Shown here: positions 36,728-44,132 of the stretch, one piece after another
Position numbering within the stretch: position 1 is the stretch's first letter
Layout of the letters: each line of letters starts with the position of its first letter
Virus record (IMG/VR): IMGVR_UViG_3300016472_001104
Location: 28,042-92,041 of that record
Length of the DNA stretch: 64,000 nt
Source: a virus
Strand: one strand, 5' to 3'
Program-made: the position numbers and the translations under genes
The notes under the pieces: model-generated
The model's database searches: none
The model's input: only the letters and a program-made list of their open reading frames with translations
Told to the model about the DNA's origin: nothing

Positions 36728-37732
36728 ATGGCTAAAGGATTAGACGTAGGTACATCATTCATTGTCCTCGCAGAAGAGGGCTCAAAAGGTAAGGTCACAT
36801 ACAAGGACTTCAGGGACGCGTTCTACGTCATCAAACCCACGACTCCCATTGCGACGAAGATGATCGAGAAGGGTTTGGCCGGTAAAACATTCGTCAAGGA
36901 TGCCGATGGTTCTTTCATCATCTTAGGAAAGGACGCCATTGAAAAGGCGGTTGAACGTAATGACTCTGCAAAACGTCCCATGTATAAGGGTGTCGTATCA
37001 TCAAAAGAAAAAGATGCAAGGCGAATTCTGACATACATCCTCAAAGAGGTCGCAGGATCTCCCTCAGAACAAGGAGAGAAACTCGTCTTCTGCGTCCCGG
37101 CACAGCCTGTCGATCAAGAAGATGAGGACTTCGATGTCGGTTACCATGAGGACGTCATCGTCAAACTTCTCACCGAGGTCGGTTATTCAGCTCGTGCTAT
37201 CAACGAGGCCGAGGCTCTCTGTTATTCTGAGTTGGAGAAGGATGACTATACTGGTATCGCGCTGTCGTGGGGCGCAGGTATGGTCAACGTCTGCGTTATG
37301 TTGAACGGTGAGCCAGTCGTCACATTTTCTACGACAAAGTCTGGTGATTGGGTGGATCGCATGGCCGCTGTTGCAACAGGAGAAGCCGACTCAATTGTCC
37401 AGGCTGAAAAGGAACAAGGAGACTTTACGGTTGGTCAACCGAACGAAAACCAGGTCCTTGCCGCCGTGGCGTCCTACTATGATCGTCTCATAGATTATAC
37501 TACGAAGCAGCTCGCTTCATCAATGGACGGTCACAAATCCCTTCCAAAATTTAAGGATCCACTACCTGTGGTCGTGGCCGGCGGCACCTCAAAGGCAAAA
37601 GGATTCGTCGATCTGTTTGCTAAGAAATTGGATGAAAACGGGTTCCCTCTTCCTGTCAAAGAAGTCCGCCATGCAGCTGATCCTCTTCACGCGGTTGCTC
37701 GTGGATGTTTGATCGCAGCACAAATAATGTGA
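36728..37732 (+). CDS. Actin-fold ATPase (MreB/ParM/MamK-like)
   Basis: Phosphate-1 GLDVGTS, VFCVPA, connect-1 INEAEA, phosphate-2 SWGAGMVN, adenosine VVAGGTS, connect-2 AVARG; AGGAG RBS. Confidence 0.82.
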   Translation: MAKGLDVGTSFIVLAEEGSKGKVTYKDFRDAFYVIKPTTPIATKMIEKGLAGKTFVKDADGSFIILGKDAIEKAVERNDSAKRPMYKGVVSSKEKDARRILTYILKEVAGSPSEQGEKLVFCVPAQPVDQEDEDFDVGYHEDVIVKLLTEVGYSARAINEAEALCYSELEKDDYTGIALSWGAGMVNVCVMLNGEPVVTFSTTKSGDWVDRMAAVATGEADSIVQAEKEQGDFTVGQPNENQVLAAVASYYDRLIDYTTKQLASSMDGHKSLPKFKDPLPVVVAGGTSKAKGFVDLFAKKLDENGFPLPVKEVRHAADPLHAVARGCLIAAQIM

Positions 37733-37752
37733 TTCTATATTGAATTGAACAT

Positions 37753-37784
37753 GAAAGGCTCCTTCACGGGGCCTTTTCGTTTTT
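37753..37784 (+). terminator. Rho-independent terminator after actin-like gene
   Basis: GAAAGGCTCC-TTCAC-GGGGCCTTTTC followed by a T tract. Confidence 0.75.
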
Positions 37785-37839
37785 AAACTTTTGTTGTGCA
37801 AACCTGTTTGCCTGTAGATTACAATGCAAATAGGCAAAG

Positions 37840-37938
37840 ATGAGCGTAAAAGTTCCTTCACGATTTGTAGGGCTCCATTGTCACACAGGACGTTTGACAA
37901 GTATTTGTGTAAATTATTTGATTTGTTTTTTTGTGTAG
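37840..37938 (+). other. Mini-ORF A: upstream copy of DnaE N-terminus (PHP motif I)
   Basis: My translation: MSVKVPSRFVGLHCHTGRLTSICVNYLICFFV*; FVGLHxHTG matches PHP motif I and the second copy at 38911; below the ORF-track size cut-off. Confidence 0.7.
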
Positions 37939-37962
37939 TATAACCACAATGTGTATGTTGCC

Positions 37963-37978
37963 CCTACTTAATAGTAGG
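37963..37978 (+). promoter_or_regulatory. RBS-sequestering hairpin upstream of endonuclease gene
   Basis: CCTACT-TAAT-AGTAGG stem covers the AGG of the AGGTG RBS; overlaps a CTACTTA variant of the ATANTTA motif. Confidence 0.55.
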
Positions 37979-37984
37979 TGAACT

Positions 37985-38908
37985 ATGTTGATAAAAACAA
38001 TATGTGAAGTATGTAATACAGAATTTGAATTCAAAAAACAAAAGCCGTCGAAACCACCCAAAAGAGCCTGTTCTAAAGAGTGCTCTTATAAATTGAGAAT
38101 AAAAGTTAGATCAACTGTACACGATCCAATCGATAAGACGTGTGTGGATTGTGAGAAAACTTTTCAAGACACCACCAAAAAGAAACAGTCTGTTAGGTGC
38201 AATGATTGCATAAATTCCAACATGGTAAAAACCAGACATTTAAGAGGAAATTATGCAAGAACACCTGAACAAAATGCAAAAACAACCGCTTCTTTACTTA
38301 AGAAATATGAATTAGGTTGGGAACCCAATACACCTGAATCAAGATTAGAAACTTCTCTTAGGAACAAAAGACTTTGGTCTGATCCCGATTGGATAGAAAA
38401 AGTACGTAAAACATGTAGGAGTAAACGTGGCGTTGATCACTGGACACAGACTCCTGAGGCTCGTCTTTTCATTTCAAATATGAAAAAAGGTAAAAAATTA
38501 AGTGAAAAGGCGAAACAGAGAATGAGTGAGTCCGCGTCAAACAGGGTTAGAAACAAAAGAGAAAGCTTATACACGTCTGCAATTGGTGGAACCAGAGAAG
38601 ACTTGAAGGGCTACTTCAGGAGTAACTGGGAAGCAAATTTTGCCAGGGTGTTAAATTACCAAAATAAATCTTGGGAATATGAACCTTCTTCCTTCACGTT
38701 ATCTAATGGGAGGACATATACACCTGACTTCTTAAGTGAGAATGTTTACTATGAAATCAAGGGAAGGTTCACCGATGCCTGTAGAGAAAAGTTAGAACTT
38801 TTTAGGAGCGAATATCCAGACATTCAACTAGTATTGATAGACGGTGTAAAGTACGACGAGTTAAGATTACAGTATAAGAGTCTGATCCCTACTTGGGAAG
38901 GAAAATAA
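37985..38908 (+). CDS. Free-standing homing-endonuclease-like protein (Zn fingers + PD-(D/E)XK-like domain)
   Basis: CEVC...CSKEC, CVDC...CNDC, NUMOD3-like KGKKLSEKAKQRMS, C-terminal FRSNWEANF...YEP...YTPDF...YEIKG. Confidence 0.75.
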   Translation: MLIKTICEVCNTEFEFKKQKPSKPPKRACSKECSYKLRIKVRSTVHDPIDKTCVDCEKTFQDTTKKKQSVRCNDCINSNMVKTRHLRGNYARTPEQNAKTTASLLKKYELGWEPNTPESRLETSLRNKRLWSDPDWIEKVRKTCRSKRGVDHWTQTPEARLFISNMKKGKKLSEKAKQRMSESASNRVRNKRESLYTSAIGGTREDLKGYFRSNWEANFARVLNYQNKSWEYEPSSFTLSNGRTYTPDFLSENVYYEIKGRFTDACREKLELFRSEYPDIQLVLIDGVKYDELRLQYKSLIPTWEGK

Positions 38909-38910
38909 AC

Positions 38911-38991
38911 ATGAGCAATGGAGATAATATGCGCCCGGTGAGAGTGCCGAACCACTTTGTCGGTCTGCACGCCCACACCGGGCGCTCGTAG
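38911..38991 (+). other. Mini-ORF B: N-terminus of DnaE (PHP motif I), out of frame with the gene body
   Basis: My translation: MSNGDNMRPVRVPNHFVGLHAHTGRS*; AAGGA RBS; the body (AFDGMG...) resumes in the +1 frame. Confidence 0.75.
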
Positions 38992-38992
38992 C

Positions 38993-41959
38993 TTGGCTTT
39001 CGATGGAATGGGCGGTCCGAATCAACACATTGATTTTGTCATGAAGAACGGCATGGACGCCTGGTCTCTTACAGATCACGGTCATATGAACGGATTTGCA
39101 GAGGCATATCTGTATGCTGAGAAACTGAAAAAGTCGGGAAAGAAATTTAAGTTGATCCCTGGATGTGAAATGTACGTGCATCCCAGTCTTGATCAATGGC
39201 GTCGTGATAAGCTTCAAGCAGAAGAGCTTGCTAAGGATGCCAAGGCAGCCAAGATCGCTGCAAAGAAGGAAAAGGAAAAGATCAAAACAGAAATTGAAAG
39301 GAAGGGTGACGAGGACGATGAAACCGTAGCGATTGAGACAAGCAATGCCTTAACCATCGAGAACGAGGACGAAACAAAGTCTGGCAAGTCATTCAATCCA
39401 GTAAATCGACGGCATCACCTCGTTGTCCTTCCGAAGACATCAGGTGCCCTCTTAAAAATCTTTCGATTAGTTTCCAGGGGTTACCTCGAAGGATTTTATC
39501 GATTTCCCAGGATCGATCTCGAGATGCTTCGCGAGGTTGCCAAGGATGACGATATCATCATCTCATCTGCGTGCCTCGGTGGAATTTATTCTCACGAGGT
39601 CTTTTCTCAACTACGTCAGGTATCTTTTGACAAGATGGACGCGAGTCTTTTAGACGATCCTCGGTTAATGGATACAATCGTTAATGCTATCGGCAACTCA
39701 TTTGATCAATACTCAGATGCTGTCGGCCGCCATAACATGATGTTGGAGCTTCAGTTCAATAGGCTTCCTGCACAGGACGTTGTCAATCGTGCAATCATTG
39801 AATTTGCACGGCGAAATTCATTGACGGACCAACTAGTGGTCACCGCAGATTCACATTATGCAAACCCGGATCTGTGGTATCACCGTGAGATGTATAAGAA
39901 GCTTGGGTATCTAAACTTTAGCGAATATGGTCCAGATTCTCTTCCAAAATCAAAGGATGACGTCAAGGCTGAATTGTATCCCAAGAATGCAGAACAGGTC
40001 TGGGACGAATTTCAAGATGCAAAGAAACGTCAACCCTTTTATGGTGATTGTGAAGACTTGATTTTCAATGCAATCGAGAGGACACACGATATCGCACACC
40101 AAGTGATTGGTGATATTAGTTTGGATACCAATTATCGATATCCAAAAAACGTTGTTCCTAAAGGAAAGACTCCGTTTCAACGCCTATTAGAACTGTGTAA
40201 GGCGGGAATGGTTAAGCGTGGTCTTTCTGAAAATGATGAATACGTTTCTCGTCTTCGTCACGAGCTTGAGGTCATCAAGAAGCTCGACAACTCTGCGTAC
40301 TTTGTGACCCTGGCAAGAGCGTTAGAGCTAGCACGTGATGTGTGTCTTCTCGGTGTTGCCCGTGGATCTTCAGGTGGTTCACTTGTTGCTTACGTCCTGG
40401 ACATCACCGACCTGGATCCAATCAAATACGAGTGTCGCTTCGATCGTTTTATGAACGTGTACAGGCACGGGGCCCCCGATATAGACTGTGACGTCGGAGA
40501 TCGCGACAAGGTCCTTGATGTTCTACGCAAAGAGTTTGGATTCAACAACGTTGTTCCAATCTCCAATATGAATACCTTCAAGGTAAAGACGCTCGTGAAG
40601 GACATCTCAAAATTCTATGGAATTCCCTTTGAAGAGGTCAACAACGCAACAAAGACCGTGGAACAAGACGTCAGAAAAGCGACGATGAAGCATGGAGACG
40701 ATAAGAACCTCTTTGTCCTTACGTTTGATGATGCGTTGAAGTACTCTCCATCGTTTAAGGAATTCATTGATAAACATCCACAGGTTGCAGAGTCTATCAA
40801 CGTCTTGTTCAAGGAACAACGTTCCCTGGGGCGCCATGCAGGAGGAGTAGTAATTCTTGACGATGCTCCGAATCAGATGCCTCTCATCACAAACTCTGGT
40901 GATCCTCAGACACCATGGGTAGAGGGTGTCGGTCAGAAAACACTCGAGCCGCTCGGGTACATAAAATATGACATTTTGGGTCTTGAAACTATGCGTCTCA
41001 TTGGCAGAACGATAGAACTTATTCTTAAGAGAAAGGAAGGACTGAATGATCCGACTTTTTCAGACGTAAGGGAATGGTATGAGAAACATCTGCACCCAGA
41101 TGTAAATGATTATAACGATCAAAGGGTTTATGAATACGTTTATCACGATGGAAGATTTGCTGGTGTCTTTCAATTAACTTCAACAGGCGCACAAAAGTTG
41201 TTTAGGTCTGCTAAGCCTAGATCAATTGTTGACATTGCAGTGTTGACTTCGATCTATCGCCCGGGACCACTTGCCGCGAACGTTGATAAACTTTATCTCA
41301 AGGCCAGGAAAGGCGAGAAGTATGAATGGGGTCATCCCCTCTTTGAAAAGGTGTTGGGTCCCACAAATAATCTTCTCATATTTCAAGAAAGTGTGATGGA
41401 TCTAGCAGAACACGTTGGCGGATTTCCAAAGGATCAATGTGATAATGTCCGCCGCGCAATCATGAAGCGAGATCTTTCCAAAGGTGATGCAGCAAAGGCA
41501 GAAGCAAAACGACTTGAGGATGACTTTGTTAATGGTGCAGTAAAAAATGGTGTAGAGGAAGAGACCGCAAGAAAAGCATACCAGAATATCCTCTGGTTCG
41601 CAGGCTATGGTTTTAATAAAAGTTTGTACTTCCGGCAAACTATAGACATAGTTAGATCTGGAGAAAAGATCACGTGTCAGATCAACGAAGTGAAACCAGG
41701 AGATCTGGTGATGAGCAAGGACCAAACAACAGGGAAACAGACCCAAGTTTCCGTAAAGAAGCTGATCAACAATGGAAAAAAGCCACTCGTCAAGGTGACC
41801 TTGAAAGATGGTCGGACAGTGATCAGCAGTATGAATCACAGATTCAGGACGACAACGGGTCATGTTCTTTCTTTGGCGGAGATCATTCGGAAAGGTCTTT
41901 CCATCGAGACGTCAGACCAAATCCGGGATACTACTGTAACAGGTGTAAAAAGTGTATAA
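38993..41959 (+). CDS. dnaE: DNA polymerase III alpha subunit, N-terminal part, fused to split-intein N half
   Basis: LTDHG, PGCEMY, SACLGG, TADSHY, ARGSSGGSLVAY, PDIDCD, GRHAGG, KYDILGL, YRPGP, GYGFNK then intein; the track's 38957 start gives a non-homologous N-terminus, so the true start is uncertain. Confidence 0.9.
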   Translation: MAFDGMGGPNQHIDFVMKNGMDAWSLTDHGHMNGFAEAYLYAEKLKKSGKKFKLIPGCEMYVHPSLDQWRRDKLQAEELAKDAKAAKIAAKKEKEKIKTEIERKGDEDDETVAIETSNALTIENEDETKSGKSFNPVNRRHHLVVLPKTSGALLKIFRLVSRGYLEGFYRFPRIDLEMLREVAKDDDIIISSACLGGIYSHEVFSQLRQVSFDKMDASLLDDPRLMDTIVNAIGNSFDQYSDAVGRHNMMLELQFNRLPAQDVVNRAIIEFARRNSLTDQLVVTADSHYANPDLWYHREMYKKLGYLNFSEYGPDSLPKSKDDVKAELYPKNAEQVWDEFQDAKKRQPFYGDCEDLIFNAIERTHDIAHQVIGDISLDTNYRYPKNVVPKGKTPFQRLLELCKAGMVKRGLSENDEYVSRLRHELEVIKKLDNSAYFVTLARALELARDVCLLGVARGSSGGSLVAYVLDITDLDPIKYECRFDRFMNVYRHGAPDIDCDVGDRDKVLDVLRKEFGFNNVVPISNMNTFKVKTLVKDISKFYGIPFEEVNNATKTVEQDVRKATMKHGDDKNLFVLTFDDALKYSPSFKEFIDKHPQVAESINVLFKEQRSLGRHAGGVVILDDAPNQMPLITNSGDPQTPWVEGVGQKTLEPLGYIKYDILGLETMRLIGRTIELILKRKEGLNDPTFSDVREWYEKHLHPDVNDYNDQRVYEYVYHDGRFAGVFQLTSTGAQKLFRSAKPRSIVDIAVLTSIYRPGPLAANVDKLYLKARKGEKYEWGHPLFEKVLGPTNNLLIFQESVMDLAEHVGGFPKDQCDNVRRAIMKRDLSKGDAAKAEAKRLEDDFVNGAVKNGVEEETARKAYQNILWFAGYGFNKSLYFRQTIDIVRSGEKITCQINEVKPGDLVMSKDQTTGKQTQVSVKKLINNGKKPLVKVTLKDGRTVISSMNHRFRTTTGHVLSLAEIIRKGLSIETSDQIRDTTVTGVKSV
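41621..41956 (+). mobile_element. Split intein, N-terminal half (112 aa)
   Basis: After GFNK: SLYFRQTI...INEVKPGDLVMS...NGKKPLVKVTLKDGRTVISSMNHRF (blocks A and B) then stop. Confidence 0.85.
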
Positions 41960-42915
41960 AGTCTGCTGGTTATACAACTGAATACACCCATGAACAACAC
42001 ATTATAGATTGTTGGCCAGGAGGTGTAGAGGGAGTTGACTACGTGGAGTGTAGGCTGTGTAAGTTTGCGGCGTTAAAGATCACGCAACATGTGAGGACCA
42101 AGCATAACATCACAAAAGAAGAGTATGAAACTAATCATGGACCAGTCAAGTGCATTTCAACCGTGGAGGCTTATTCAAAGGTCAATAAATACAACGGAGA
42201 TTGGATCAATAGAAAGAAAGAACAAGGGATCGATCTGACTGATTATGCGAAGAAGATGGGTGTGGCTGTGAGTCGTTCAATCATGAGTAATCCAGACGAA
42301 CGCGCAAGAAGGGCAGCCAATATGATCTCCATGAACAAGACAGATGAAGCGAGACAAAAATCTTCAATCACTGCTAAAATAACGTCAGCTAGACCTGAGA
42401 TTATTGAAAAAAGAACGATGGTACTTAGAAAATGGAGAAATGAAAATTGGGAAACATTCTATGAAAAATGTATCAAAAAACTTAGTTTTTCTGAGTATAG
42501 AATGTCAAATCCTGAAATTTGTCTTAGAAACGTCCTTTCTCAGGTTGATGGATATAATTTTACATGGTCACAGTTGGTAAAAAGTGACACATTTGACAAC
42601 AAATCCAAAAGAAAACAAGTTGATTTTGGAGATAAGAAATTACGAGTCTATGTAGAGTTTGATGGTATTCATCATTTTAAATGTTTTAAAGTTCGTGAAG
42701 ACTTTGAAAAGGGTAGAAGAAATGACATCGCACTTGATGAACACGTAGAAAAACATGGTTGGACGTTGATCAGGATTTCATATGATCAGTATGATCCAAA
42801 ATGTGAATTATCATTTAAAAAAACATGTCTTCAACGTCTCCATCATATTCTACAAAATCCGACTCCCGGTGTCCATCGTATCGGTGATGCATATAATCAA
42901 GAGAAGCAAACATGA
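41674..42915 (+). CDS. Homing-endonuclease-like protein (C2H2 finger + Vsr/DUF559-like domain) between the intein halves; start uncertain
   Basis: YVECRLC...HVRTKH, SNPE, QVDF...VEFDGIHHF...GWTLIRISY; alternative GTG start at about 42043 with GGAG upstream. Confidence 0.75.
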   Translation: MSDQRSETRRSGDEQGPNNRETDPSFRKEADQQWKKATRQGDLERWSDSDQQYESQIQDDNGSCSFFGGDHSERSFHRDVRPNPGYYCNRCKKCIKSAGYTTEYTHEQHIIDCWPGGVEGVDYVECRLCKFAALKITQHVRTKHNITKEEYETNHGPVKCISTVEAYSKVNKYNGDWINRKKEQGIDLTDYAKKMGVAVSRSIMSNPDERARRAANMISMNKTDEARQKSSITAKITSARPEIIEKRTMVLRKWRNENWETFYEKCIKKLSFSEYRMSNPEICLRNVLSQVDGYNFTWSQLVKSDTFDNKSKRKQVDFGDKKLRVYVEFDGIHHFKCFKVREDFEKGRRNDIALDEHVEKHGWTLIRISYDQYDPKCELSFKKTCLQRLHHILQNPTPGVHRIGDAYNQEKQT

Positions 42916-43196
42916 GCGTTAATTTTATTGAGCGTGGTGAAGAGTTGATCGCATCGACGACGATGGATAGAGAGCGGATCGTCGATGCGATGCTCGATTG
43001 TTACCTTTCAGGAGAGGTAGATTACTCTCTACATCCAGACCGGTGGGTGAGAGACCTAAAAAAAATTGATCTTTCGGGGGATGAATCCACAAACATTGCC
43101 ACCGTGGAATACTTTGGCGATGAAGATACGTACGACCTTGAGGTGGAACATCCGGATCACCAGTTCTACCTTCCTAATGGGATTCTGACATCAAAT
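42912..43196 (+). mobile_element. Split intein, C-terminal half (95 aa)
   Basis: Blocks F and G ending TSN before Ser+1 of SHAIAY. Confidence 0.85.
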
Positions 43197-44132
43197 TCCC
43201 ATGCAATCGCATATGCGATTGATTCATATATGTGTGCATGGTTATTGACACATTATGAAGAGGAGTGGCTGTGCGCATATCTTGAGACAATGTCAAACAA
43301 TCCTGACGATAAAGCAAAGGCTTTCGGCGAGATCAAGGGAATGGGTTACCAGATCGTTCCAATCGACATAAATTATGCCACAAAGACATGGACAATCATT
43401 CCTGGAAAGAAATTTATGCCAAGCCTGTTGACGTGTAAGGGTCTTGGTGATGCAGCCATTGATGAAATCATGGAAAATAGGCCATATAAATCGATGGAAG
43501 AATTTTTGTGGAATTCTGATGGGTCATGGCGTCACTCCAAATTCAACAAGAAGGCCCTGGAGTCACTCATCAAGATTGAGGCATTTGATTCAATGGAAGT
43601 TGTCGGACCTGGTCGGTTGTTTGAAAATTATGGACAGATGCATTTTGTTCTCGTTGAAAGCAATGATCTAATCAAAAAATCGACAAAGAAGGAACCCACT
43701 CTGGGACAGAAAAACTTTCAGGAGTTAACTGAAAGATCGCGTGATATGCAACCATGGTCACGACAGGAACGAGTGCAAAATTTTGTTGAATACCTTGGAT
43801 CTGTTGATGTGACGATGATCGTAGAACCAGACGTCATGAAAAAGTTAGTTGACAAGGGTGTTAGGTCAATCGATACGCTTGAAAATGGTGAGAAGGACAT
43901 CAGTTGGTTCTGTGTCCAAGAAACGACAGCAAAGAGAACGAAGGCAGGAAAATCTTACCTACTCATTGGGGCATTAGGGATGGACGGAAAGACACATCGA
44001 CTCAGCGTATGGGGATGGAAGGATGATTCAAAAAAGATTTCACCATATTCTTTGTGCCTTGCAGAGATCGAAAAGAATGACTTTGGTTGCTCTACAACGT
44101 CATGGAAACTAAAAACGATTGGTGATGAATAA
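42912..44132 (+). CDS. dnaE: Split-intein C half fused to DnaE C-terminal part
   Basis: TYDLEVEHPDHQFYLPNGILTSN then SHAIAY, PIDINY, KGLG (HhH), NKKALESLIKIEAFDS and an OB-fold-like end; ATGA-coupled to the endonuclease. Confidence 0.9.
   Translation: MSVNFIERGEELIASTTMDRERIVDAMLDCYLSGEVDYSLHPDRWVRDLKKIDLSGDESTNIATVEYFGDEDTYDLEVEHPDHQFYLPNGILTSNSHAIAYAIDSYMCAWLLTHYEEEWLCAYLETMSNNPDDKAKAFGEIKGMGYQIVPIDINYATKTWTIIPGKKFMPSLLTCKGLGDAAIDEIMENRPYKSMEEFLWNSDGSWRHSKFNKKALESLIKIEAFDSMEVVGPGRLFENYGQMHFVLVESNDLIKKSTKKEPTLGQKNFQELTERSRDMQPWSRQERVQNFVEYLGSVDVTMIVEPDVMKKLVDKGVRSIDTLENGEKDISWFCVQETTAKRTKAGKSYLLIGALGMDGKTHRLSVWGWKDDSKKISPYSLCLAEIEKNDFGCSTTSWKLKTIGDE

Follow-up and report, generated by a model that had tools for sequence, protein, structure and literature searches.

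The dnaE gene of an uncultured giant phage is split after 26 codons by seven nucleotides, TAGCTTG, at 38989-38995 of the window (the whole 64,000-nt stretch analysed here). Judging from comparisons of sequence, we consider it quite probable that ribosomes cross these 7 nt by a programmed short-range translational bypass, and that this coding gap belongs to a mobile homing-endonuclease cassette. It seems probable that the element represents a second, evolutionarily independent family of natural bypasses, common in uncultured, mostly freshwater large phages, in which a hairpin drives a hop of 5-16 nt to a wobble-compatible triplet and the nuclease target is broken, within an invariant catalytic motif, with the protein unchanged. 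We know of very few natural systems of programmed bypassing. If the reading is true, the dozens of natural variants in this second family would make a compact model of about 80 nt, in which stop, landing triplet, gap length and 5' hairpin each have a role that can be separated from the others. It would also bear on the open question of what moves a ribosome forward when it is unpaired from its mRNA.

Layout of the interrupted gene

The following features make up the region.
37840..37938, + strand, remnant of the native dnaE 5' end ('copy A'), matching the N-termini of the continuous relatives P0006-P0008
37985..38908, + strand, putative homing-endonuclease gene, 307 aa, with N-terminal Cys clusters and a C-terminal PD-(D/E)xK domain like T7 endonuclease I
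38911..38988, + strand, dnaE 5' end from the cassette, 26 codons: N-terminal extension and region homologous to the native one (HFVGLHAHTGRS)
38931..38985, + strand, predicted long RNA hairpin, closing just 5' of the take-off codon
38986..38988, + strand, putative take-off codon UCG (Ser), followed directly by TAG
38989..38995, + strand, putative untranslated gap TAGCTTG: stop TAG 38989-38991, C, landing triplet TTG 38993-38995
38996..41959, + strand, dnaE body: rest of the PHP domain, Pol III alpha core, finger domain and split-intein N half
41674..42915, + strand, open frame between the intein halves, likely a second free-standing endonuclease (weak DUF559/Vsr-like match)
42912..44132, + strand, split-intein C half, then the C-terminal part of DnaE (HHH_6 domain)

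The short upstream frame starts at ATG 38911, encodes MSNGDNMRPVRVPNHFVGLHAHTGRS and is closed by the TAG. An alternative in-frame start for this leader is ATG 38929, with GGAG (38920-38923) sitting 5 nt upstream. The body of dnaE lies in frame +1 (...AFDGMGGPNQHIDFVMK...), where it resumes at GCT 38996 with AFDG and continues for 987 codons to the stop at 41959. Reading both frames directly, we confirm the stop-led interruption of 7 nt, with the body in frame +1, that was the starting point of the original prediction. The gap falls within the conserved codons of PHP motif I. Without the 7 nt the product reads HTGRS-AFDG and has the spacing of HxGxS-SFDG in the continuous relatives P0006-P0009, in line with the PHP motif spacing that had been claimed, and by the same comparison a plain +1 shift does add two residues (SL) at the junction.

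Further downstream the gene is divided by a split intein. The true start of the open frame between the intein halves is uncertain because this frame overlaps the end of the dnaE body. Such 'fractured genes' were described for the same phage dnaE class, with a split intein and an endonuclease-like ORF between its halves (Dassa et al. 2009, PMC2677866). In those genes protein trans-splicing makes good the break; the paper does not treat the 5' gap of this window.

Interrupted dnaE genes in relatives

Conservation of the gap in relatives had been proposed as a check. Contigs of viral and metagenome origin, from independent assemblies, do indeed carry a break at the same site: they yielded 57 distinct junction sequences, among which we count 42 different gaps, each 5-16 nt long. 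A stop directly 3' of the same Ser codon is present in all 57 junctions and all three stop codons occur, with the proviso that the DNA pattern which retrieved most copies demanded a stop and several conserved codons. In a homology-based sample, free of the bias of the DNA pattern, 12 of 45 dnaE genes are interrupted, each at the Ser codon and then a stop. Because site, stop and hairpin recur in 57 distinct junctions from independent assemblies, the break is not a matter of chance or artefact. A sequencing or assembly error might be suspected in a single metagenome-derived record, but it is almost certainly not the explanation when the same site is broken in 57 different sequences, from independent samples and with different gaps. 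The closest interrupted relative (P0004, 87% identical) likewise has its start in the shifted frame; deduced from the protein only, as is the junction of P0032, the changes that set it apart (GCC to GCA, TAG to TAA) are silent when read in frame 0. The database proteins of both start in the wrong frame, examples of how dnaE genes of the interrupted type are mis-annotated by gene callers. A DNA search of deposited phage genomes gave no match to the region. The element was not seen in species-representative bacterial genomes either, where 27 scan matches were all due to chance and none lay in dnaE. A literature search found no paper describing a gap device in dnaE.

The gap lengths have remainders of 0, 1 and 2 on division by three in 21, 16 and 20 of the 57 junctions, respectively, and some gaps are in frame and contain one to three stops. 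This distribution bears on a +1 ribosomal frameshift at UCG-UAG, by which the product would become HTGRS-SL-AFDG. In its favour, 7 nt amount to +1 in frame, and shifting is classically stimulated by a stop in the A site, but re-pairing of the Ser-tRNA on CGU is impossible and two extra residues would come to lie inside PHP motif I. Because the gaps of relatives occur in all three frames, some of them with in-frame double stops, a frameshift cannot be the mechanism of the family, and we regard it as very unlikely. Suppression of the stop was rejected as well: no tRNA gene was found within the window, and readthrough is implausible because double stops of different kinds occur.

A quite different view would be that a selfish insertion merely inactivates dnaE or truncates its N-terminus, and that the phage copes, for example by means of an internal start or of the polymerase of its host. 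Mild harm from homing cassettes is possible, and since the 92-kb virus record, which holds no second dnaE, has a completeness of only about 26%, the rest of the genome could encode another polymerase. Drift would be expected in a dead gene, however, and the body frames are intact in dozens of lineages, with 283-1451 aa open where the contig includes a stop. In the homologous region, synonymous positions vary freely from copy to copy, yet F, G, H, H, G and S never change; the search pattern partly forces this invariance, but the 10 copies found by homology only share it. The catalytic HxH of this region is kept under synonymous change too. Hairpin, stop and landing triplet are moreover kept by compensatory change, and we find inactivation unlikely.

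A covarying hairpin at the proposed take-off site

The perfect GC-rich stem of the original prediction was recovered, with the 5' arm GCGCCCGGTG (38931-38940) pairing to the 3' arm CACCGGGCGC (38976-38985) over 10 bp. The hairpin has a minimum free energy (MFE) of -32.1 kcal/mol and a z-score of -2.45 in a 73-nt stretch, or -4.4 in the 69 nt that end at the stop. A long hairpin is found in every interrupted copy and the continuous genes are without it; the mean MFE is -29.9 (z -5.0, n=28) in the former and -12.5 (z +0.2, n=30) in the latter.

Covariation of the stem had also been put forward as a check on relatives. We observe it at synonymous sites in per-sequence partner tables. A formal count on 15 same-register copies found 89.7% of cells paired, compared to 32-52% with the partners slid, and seven doubly changed pairs; none of 500 shuffles attained the score. 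When 25 copies were aligned with MAFFT, RNAalifold found no single consensus structure, because the register of the hairpin differs between lineages. Two copies (L012/L023) have the take-off site three codons further upstream, and their hairpin has shifted together with it; they carry a 42-nt palindromic insert, and this variant is the only one with a hairpin inside the gap. The more bases of the 3' arm are paired, the longer the gap tends to be, but the correlation is weak (r 0.35). The idea that the hairpin acts as a terminator or stabiliser of the nuclease mRNA was discarded, as no U-run follows it and cassettes without a nuclease gene retain it.

A conserved structure adjoining the gap might also suggest that the gap is removed from the RNA, by cutting and re-ligation or as a tiny intron, with guidance by the hairpin, and phages do encode RNA ligases. 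No known mechanism cuts 5-16 nt out of bacterial mRNA, however, and both the obligatory stop after the take-off codon and the tRNA-compatible landing would be left unexplained. Scanning 37600-39200 against Rfam with a permissive threshold gave chance matches only and no intron. We hold RNA removal to be highly improbable. A group I or group II intron or an intein at the break was rejected on the same Rfam result and on size, 7 nt being too small for either.

The proposed landing triplet fits the take-off codon

The final triplet of the gap agrees with the take-off codon in at least two of its three positions in 93% of the junction types; at neighbouring offsets such agreement is seen in 0-30%. 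For a TCC take-off codon, the landing triplet has C (13) or T (10) as its third base, and neither A nor G occurs. For TCG, the third base is G (8), A (4) or T (3), and C is absent. The third bases of take-off and landing are thereby associated (Fisher 1.9e-7), although statistics on junction types overstate independence because the types share ancestry. Among continuous relatives, AGY encodes this Ser in 16 of 31 cases, and an AGY landing is never paired with a TCN take-off; the sole AGT take-off found (L176) has exactly AGT as its landing. In this window UUG would be the landing for UCG, a match at two of three positions with the mismatch at the middle codon position. The same TCG-to-TTG pair occurs in three gap types, which are TAGCTTG (window), TAGTTG (L085) and TGAAGTTG (L098). 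Taken across the family, the landing triplets appear to fit the take-off tRNA in the way that wobble decoding by one tRNA predicts.

The landing triplet of the window, TTG, can also act as a start codon. This opens the possibility of a split polymerase, in which the 26-aa peptide ends at the TAG, translation re-initiates at TTG 38993 and the two chains join non-covalently. The T4 MobA and MobE insertions do yield split proteins that assemble (bioRxiv 10.1101/2022.08.31.505936). Against such a restart, the body frame of 40 of the 57 relatives is devoid of ATG, GTG and TTG before the resume codon. Their landings are mostly TCN, ACN or GCN, and the next start typically lies more than 10 codons into the conserved motif. 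There is no SD before the gap, and a wobble match between take-off and landing is not predicted by re-initiation. We consider this split improbable, as it builds on a feature specific to the window. Of the three models that were originally offered, the hop from UCG to UUG is favoured by the gaps in all frames, the fit of the landing, the recurrence of the TCG-to-TTG pair and the covarying hairpin that shifts with the take-off site; the restart at TTG is disfavoured for the reasons above, and so is the micro-intron, for which 5-16 nt is too short.

A probable mobile nuclease cassette

The family profile of the upstream nuclease matches PDB 1m0d at E 2.2e-7 and PHROG 945 at E 6.6e-15. In 29 of the 48 loci with enough context, the window included, a homologue of this nuclease immediately precedes the interrupted dnaE. 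At 19 loci no homologue of this nuclease is found upstream, yet the hairpin, stop and landing triplet are conserved. The cassette, which comprises the nuclease gene, a new start, the N-terminal extension, a recoded native dnaE 5' end and the stop-led gap, now stands in place of the original 5' end of dnaE. In the window the displaced start survives as copy A, which was severed from dnaE by the insertion and encodes MSVKVPSRFVGLHCHTGR, followed by an unrelated 14-codon tail and a stop. A remnant of this kind is present in a second locus (L039) and a decayed one in a third (L014).

On a quick dnaE tree the interrupted state requires at least 8-9 changes. In one pair of loci (L005 versus L004) the sequences flanking a 1017-nt cassette are 99.3-99.6% identical on either side, and the right end of the cassette is the last base of the gap, i.e. 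at the landing codon. A nuclease adjoining its target, a patchy occurrence among close relatives and clean boundaries all point to a mobile homing-endonuclease cassette. The gap would then exist because of the upstream nuclease cassette, a link that was absent from the original prediction.

Proposed mechanism

The sequence holds the hallmarks of bypass, namely a stop after the take-off codon, an apparently tRNA-compatible landing, restored spacing and a structure at the take-off site. We suggest that a leader of 20-26 codons is translated until the ribosome, its A site occupied by TAG, stalls with peptidyl-tRNA-Ser paired to UCG. Because the 3' arm lies in the last 4-5 codons, the outer stem should be unable to form as long as the ribosome covers this arm. 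Borrowing from work on gene 60, the hairpin may re-zip behind the ribosome and pull the mRNA forward. The tRNA would release UCG and re-pair with UUG 7 nt downstream, and decoding would restart at GCT. The expected outcome is a single polypeptide, ...HTGRS-AFDG..., with the junction peptide ...HTGRSAFDGMGGPNQHIDFVMK. At the DNA level the gap presumably splits the nuclease target and makes the carrier genome immune to cleavage; because it separates the two halves of the target, immunity could be gained without a change to an essential protein.

Comparison with known bypass systems

The closest parallel is T4 gene 60/MobA, which has the same cassette of nuclease, N-terminal extension, recoded host copy and stop-led gap (Manning & Atkins, bioRxiv 10.1101/2022.08.31.505936; Wills et al., bioRxiv 10.1101/2024.12.09.627546). 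Both systems have matched take-off and landing codons, both are patchy among close relatives with a gap that outlasts the loss of the nuclease gene, and for both mRNA pairing behind the ribosome has been proposed as the driver. The differences are nevertheless many. The host gene is dnaE, at its PHP motif, instead of the Toprim domain of a topoisomerase, and the nuclease is of the PD-(D/E)xK type like T7 endonuclease I instead of the HNH type of T4 MobA. The gap measures 5-16 nt here; in the gene 60 family it is 50 nt long, except for one clade with 20 nt. T4 gene 60 has a stem-loop in its gap, which the dnaE element lacks except for the 42-nt variant, whereas the 5' hairpin of about 55 nt is conserved in the dnaE element and the 5' stem-loop of the gene 60 family is not. 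The take-off codon encodes Ser here and Gly in gene 60. The upstream fragment is a useless remnant in the dnaE element and a functional subunit in T4. With its T7 endonuclease I-like nuclease, dnaE as host gene and a 7-nt gap, the element was rejected as a member of the T4 MobA/gene 60 family; it parallels that family in architecture, with no sign of homology. The T4 cassette was still termed 'unique' in a 2022 survey (bioRxiv 10.1101/2022.08.31.505936). If our reading holds, two unrelated nuclease families would have solved self-immunity alike, by convergent evolution.

Short hops were seen in E. coli reporters by Weiss et al. 1987, as cited in PMC10732093 and bioRxiv 10.1101/2022.08.31.505936, where a peptidyl-tRNA passes a stop or a hungry codon and re-pairs a few nt downstream, independently of frame. 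Junctions of the dnaE family such as TCG TAG TCG and AGT TA AGT look much like these. The reporter hops were of low efficiency and in artificial or accidental contexts, whereas the dnaE hop would be obligatory for an essential gene and have a conserved putative stimulatory hairpin. Natural bypassed coding gaps are also described for the terminase of Streptomyces phage phiHau3 and as the mobile 'byp' elements of Magnusiomyces capitatus mitochondria (PMC10732093). These concern other genes and other signals (a rare UUA codon, GC-cluster elements), and the passages of PMC10732093 on them mention no link to a nuclease cassette. The 42-nt palindromic insert of L012/L023 resembles a byp-like element.

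The interrupted dnaE of the window

On re-reading the sequence, the dnaE gene of the window is split as the original prediction described, with a leader that ends at a TAG and a body that continues in frame +1. The features of the region are the following.

37840-37893: second dnaE start MSVKVPSRFVGLHCHTGR, upstream of the nuclease ORF
37985-38908: predicted nuclease ORF of the cassette, 307 aa, directly 5' of the leader
38911 (ATG) to 38989-38991 (TAG): 26-codon leader MSNGDNMRPVRVPNHFVGLHAHTGRS, read from the sequence
38920-38923: GGAG, 5 nt before the in-frame ATG 38929
38989-38995: gap, TAGCTTG
From 38996 (GCT): dnaE body, 987 codons, frame +1; rest of the PHP domain, Pol III alpha core and finger domain

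Leaving out TAGCTTG gives HTGRS-AFDG, with a spacing identical to that of continuous relatives, which have no stop-led gap in PHP motif I (...RFVGLHxHxGxS-SFDGMG...), and a simple +1 shift would give a product with two extra residues. The stem also pairs perfectly, GCGCCCGGTG (38931-40) with CACCGGGCGC (38976-85), and the hairpin has a minimum free energy (MFE) of -32.1 kcal/mol. The 3' end of the dnaE body encodes the N half of a split intein, and the finished polymerase would require both a hop and protein trans-splicing. The split intein interrupts dnaE at 41674-44132, and its halves flank an ORF that resembles an endonuclease (weak DUF559/Vsr-like match), a layout that matches the 'fractured gene' of PMC2677866. 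The virus record, of 92 kb and about 26% complete, contains one dnaE.

Diversity of the gap in relatives

A homology search of IMG/VR with the dnaE body found 45 dnaE loci. Twelve are interrupted, ten at the same Ser codon and two three codons upstream, and in all 12 the stop lies directly 3' of the Ser codon. We also scanned DNA for the pattern F-x-G-x-H-x-H-x-G-x-S-stop, which returned 28 viral loci (28/28 true cases), 73 metagenome loci (more than 46 true) and, in species-representative genomes, 27 loci that were every one a chance match. Conservation of the gap had been proposed as a check: the interruption recurs, and the pooled set holds 57 distinct junctions and 42 distinct gaps of 5-16 nt. 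Stop usage among the junctions is TAA 27, TGA 21 and TAG 9, the stop being built into the pattern by which most copies were retrieved.

Gap length modulo 3 leaves remainder 0 in 21 junctions, 1 in 16 and 2 in 20, and there are in-frame gaps with one to three stops, such as TAG TGA TCC, TAA TAA TCT and TAG GGG ATT TAA TCA. Gaps in all frames and in-frame multi-stop gaps exclude one frameshift or one readthrough event for the whole family, and a single frame-blind mechanism can serve all of them. We infer that the dnaE gap is probably crossed by a frame-independent bypass.

Database gene calls for close relatives misplace the start: those of P0004 (MSVCTHTPGARNLAFDG) and P0032 (...TRASVKCTFDG) open in the shifted frame, and that of P0005 lies downstream of the motif. 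The protein sequences alone imply TCG TAA CTTG for P0004 and, for P0032, take-off at AGT and landing at TGY.

The two loci interrupted further upstream, L012 and L023 (2943-3030 in each), have their take-off TCG after HAHS, and the hairpin has shifted together with it. Their gap is of a different kind, 42 nt in all, and consists of TAA, a perfect 12-bp GC-rich hairpin and the landing TCA, with resumption at GGA TTC. The loop of the gap hairpin is inverted between them (AAATAA and TTTATT), which would fit insertion of a small palindromic element in either orientation. Neither has a nuclease gene upstream of dnaE.

The proposed landing triplet

Homology fixes the resume codon: it encodes the residue that precedes [F/Y/M]DG. 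Comparison of the triplet just 5' of this codon with the take-off codon gives at least two identical positions in 93% of junction types, against 0-30% at neighbouring offsets. The GGA anticodon decodes UCC and UCU, and the modified UGA anticodon decodes UCA, UCG and UCU. For a TCC take-off the third base of the landing is C 13 or T 10 times and never A or G; for TCG it is G 8, A 4 and T 3 times and never C (Fisher 1.9e-7; the junction types share descent, so the evidence is at most as strong as this value suggests). Judged by these codons, the landing third base obeys wobble logic. The UCG-to-UUG hop of the original prediction agrees with this: the window's TCG/TTG pair is also seen with the gaps TAGTTG and TGAAGTTG, and the landings appear to fit the take-off tRNA.

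The Ser codon is AGY in 16/31 continuous relatives, yet AGY never serves as landing for a TCN take-off among the junction types; thus the native Ser codon has not simply persisted as the landing triplet. As a prediction test of the landing rule we scanned for AGY take-offs. The sole match, L176 (AGT|TAAGT|GTA), has an AGT landing identical to its take-off across 5 nt of gap, together with a hairpin of 14 bp, and the end of the nuclease gene precedes it.

Termination followed by restart at TTG, also part of the original prediction, fares poorly, since 40/57 copies offer no ATG, GTG or TTG in the body frame from the preceding stop to the resume codon, and this open stretch is often just one to three codons long. 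Body frames remain open, over 283-1451 aa in contigs that reach a stop. The leader keeps F, G, H, H, G and S, among them the metal ligands of HxH, while synonymous change is free; this conservation is partly forced by the search pattern, but the 10 copies that came from the homology search alone show it too.

The hairpin 5' of the take-off codon

The 66 nt that precede the stop form a long imperfect hairpin in all interrupted copies; its 3' arm takes up the last 4-5 codons, ending 1-3 nt short of the stop. Mean MFE of this segment is -29.9 kcal/mol in interrupted copies (z -5.0, n=28) and -12.5 in continuous ones (z +0.2, n=30). Covariation of the stem had likewise been proposed as a check, and partners do co-change at synonymous sites: the third-base pair of the Gly codon is U-A 7, C-G 7 or G-C 10 times, and that of the Phe codon G-C 19 or A-U 6 times. 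Among 15 same-register copies 89.7% of cells are paired, compared with 32-52% when partners are slid; seven pairs are altered on both sides, and the covariation score was reached by 0/500 shuffles. Pairing is kept despite unrelated leader peptides (NPVRVP, ERLVSRIK and LGSMKAP lineages). In the window, Arg (CGC), native to its clade, replaces Phe before the take-off Ser, and the 5' arm has a compensating GCG.

An SD-like 4-mer is present in 54/57 copies, at most 22 nt 5' of the base of the hairpin. The 5' arm of the window's hairpin starts at the final base of ATG 38929, and leader initiation could be gated by the same hairpin too.

For the hop itself, we suggest that the ribosome would stall at the stop, that the free 5' arm would zip with the 3' arm leaving the ribosome and so pull the mRNA forward, and that peptidyl-tRNA-Ser would pair anew at whichever compatible triplet comes first. 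The gaps (5-16 nt) span about as many nucleotides as the 3' arm has paired bases (5-18, mean 13), with a weak correlation between gap length and 3' arm pairing (r 0.35). This kind of driver has been argued for in T4 gene 60 (bioRxiv 10.1101/2024.12.09.627546). Members of the gene 60 family do not conserve the 5' stem-loop, whereas the 5' hairpin is the most conserved feature of the dnaE element.

A mobile nuclease cassette

The C-terminal domain of the 307-aa predicted nuclease resembles T7 endonuclease I (PDB 1m0d, E 2.2e-7 with a family profile) and also matches PHROG 945 (E 6.6e-15), and Cys clusters lie at the N-terminus of the ORF. Compared with the leader at 38911, the dnaE start at 37840-37893 is closer to the N-termini native to continuous relatives; it ends after the Arg codon, one codon short of the Ser take-off position. 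These positions give the order displaced native 5' end, nuclease gene, replacement 5' end, gap and body. A similar displaced start is found in L039, and a decayed version in L014. Just 5' of the cassette, at 36728-37732, lies an actin-fold gene with a match to the Pfam Volactin family (E 8.7e-68); 334-aa ORFs precede dnaE in a number of related loci (L001, L008, L009, L011, L012 and L017).

A nuclease homologue lies 5' of dnaE in 29/48 loci with enough context, and the other 19 keep gap and hairpin without it. On a quick tree of the dnaE body (46 rows) the interrupted state requires at least 8-9 changes, and L001, the sister of the window, is continuous. Interrupted L005 and continuous L004 differ by a 1017-nt segment, which in L005 stands in place of 124 nt and has its right end at the final base of the gap; the two loci share 99.3% identity on its upstream side and 99.6% on its downstream side.

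The cassette matches the layout of the T4 MobA element point by point. Gene, nuclease fold, gap length and stimulatory structure all differ, which places the dnaE element outside the MobA family. Our literature searches found no report of dnaE bypass, and the metagenomic split-dnaE paper PMC2677866 does not mention the 5' gap. Self-immunity is reported to have been demonstrated for MobA in T4 (bioRxiv 10.1101/2022.08.31.505936); by analogy, the gap would split the nuclease's DNA target within an invariant motif and make the carrier self-immune. In L003 a homologue of the cassette nuclease (1946-2881, 36% identity) lies 5' of a continuous dnaE without the hairpin (MFE -13.7); either this nuclease is a variant with another target, or the dnaE is immune through base changes alone.
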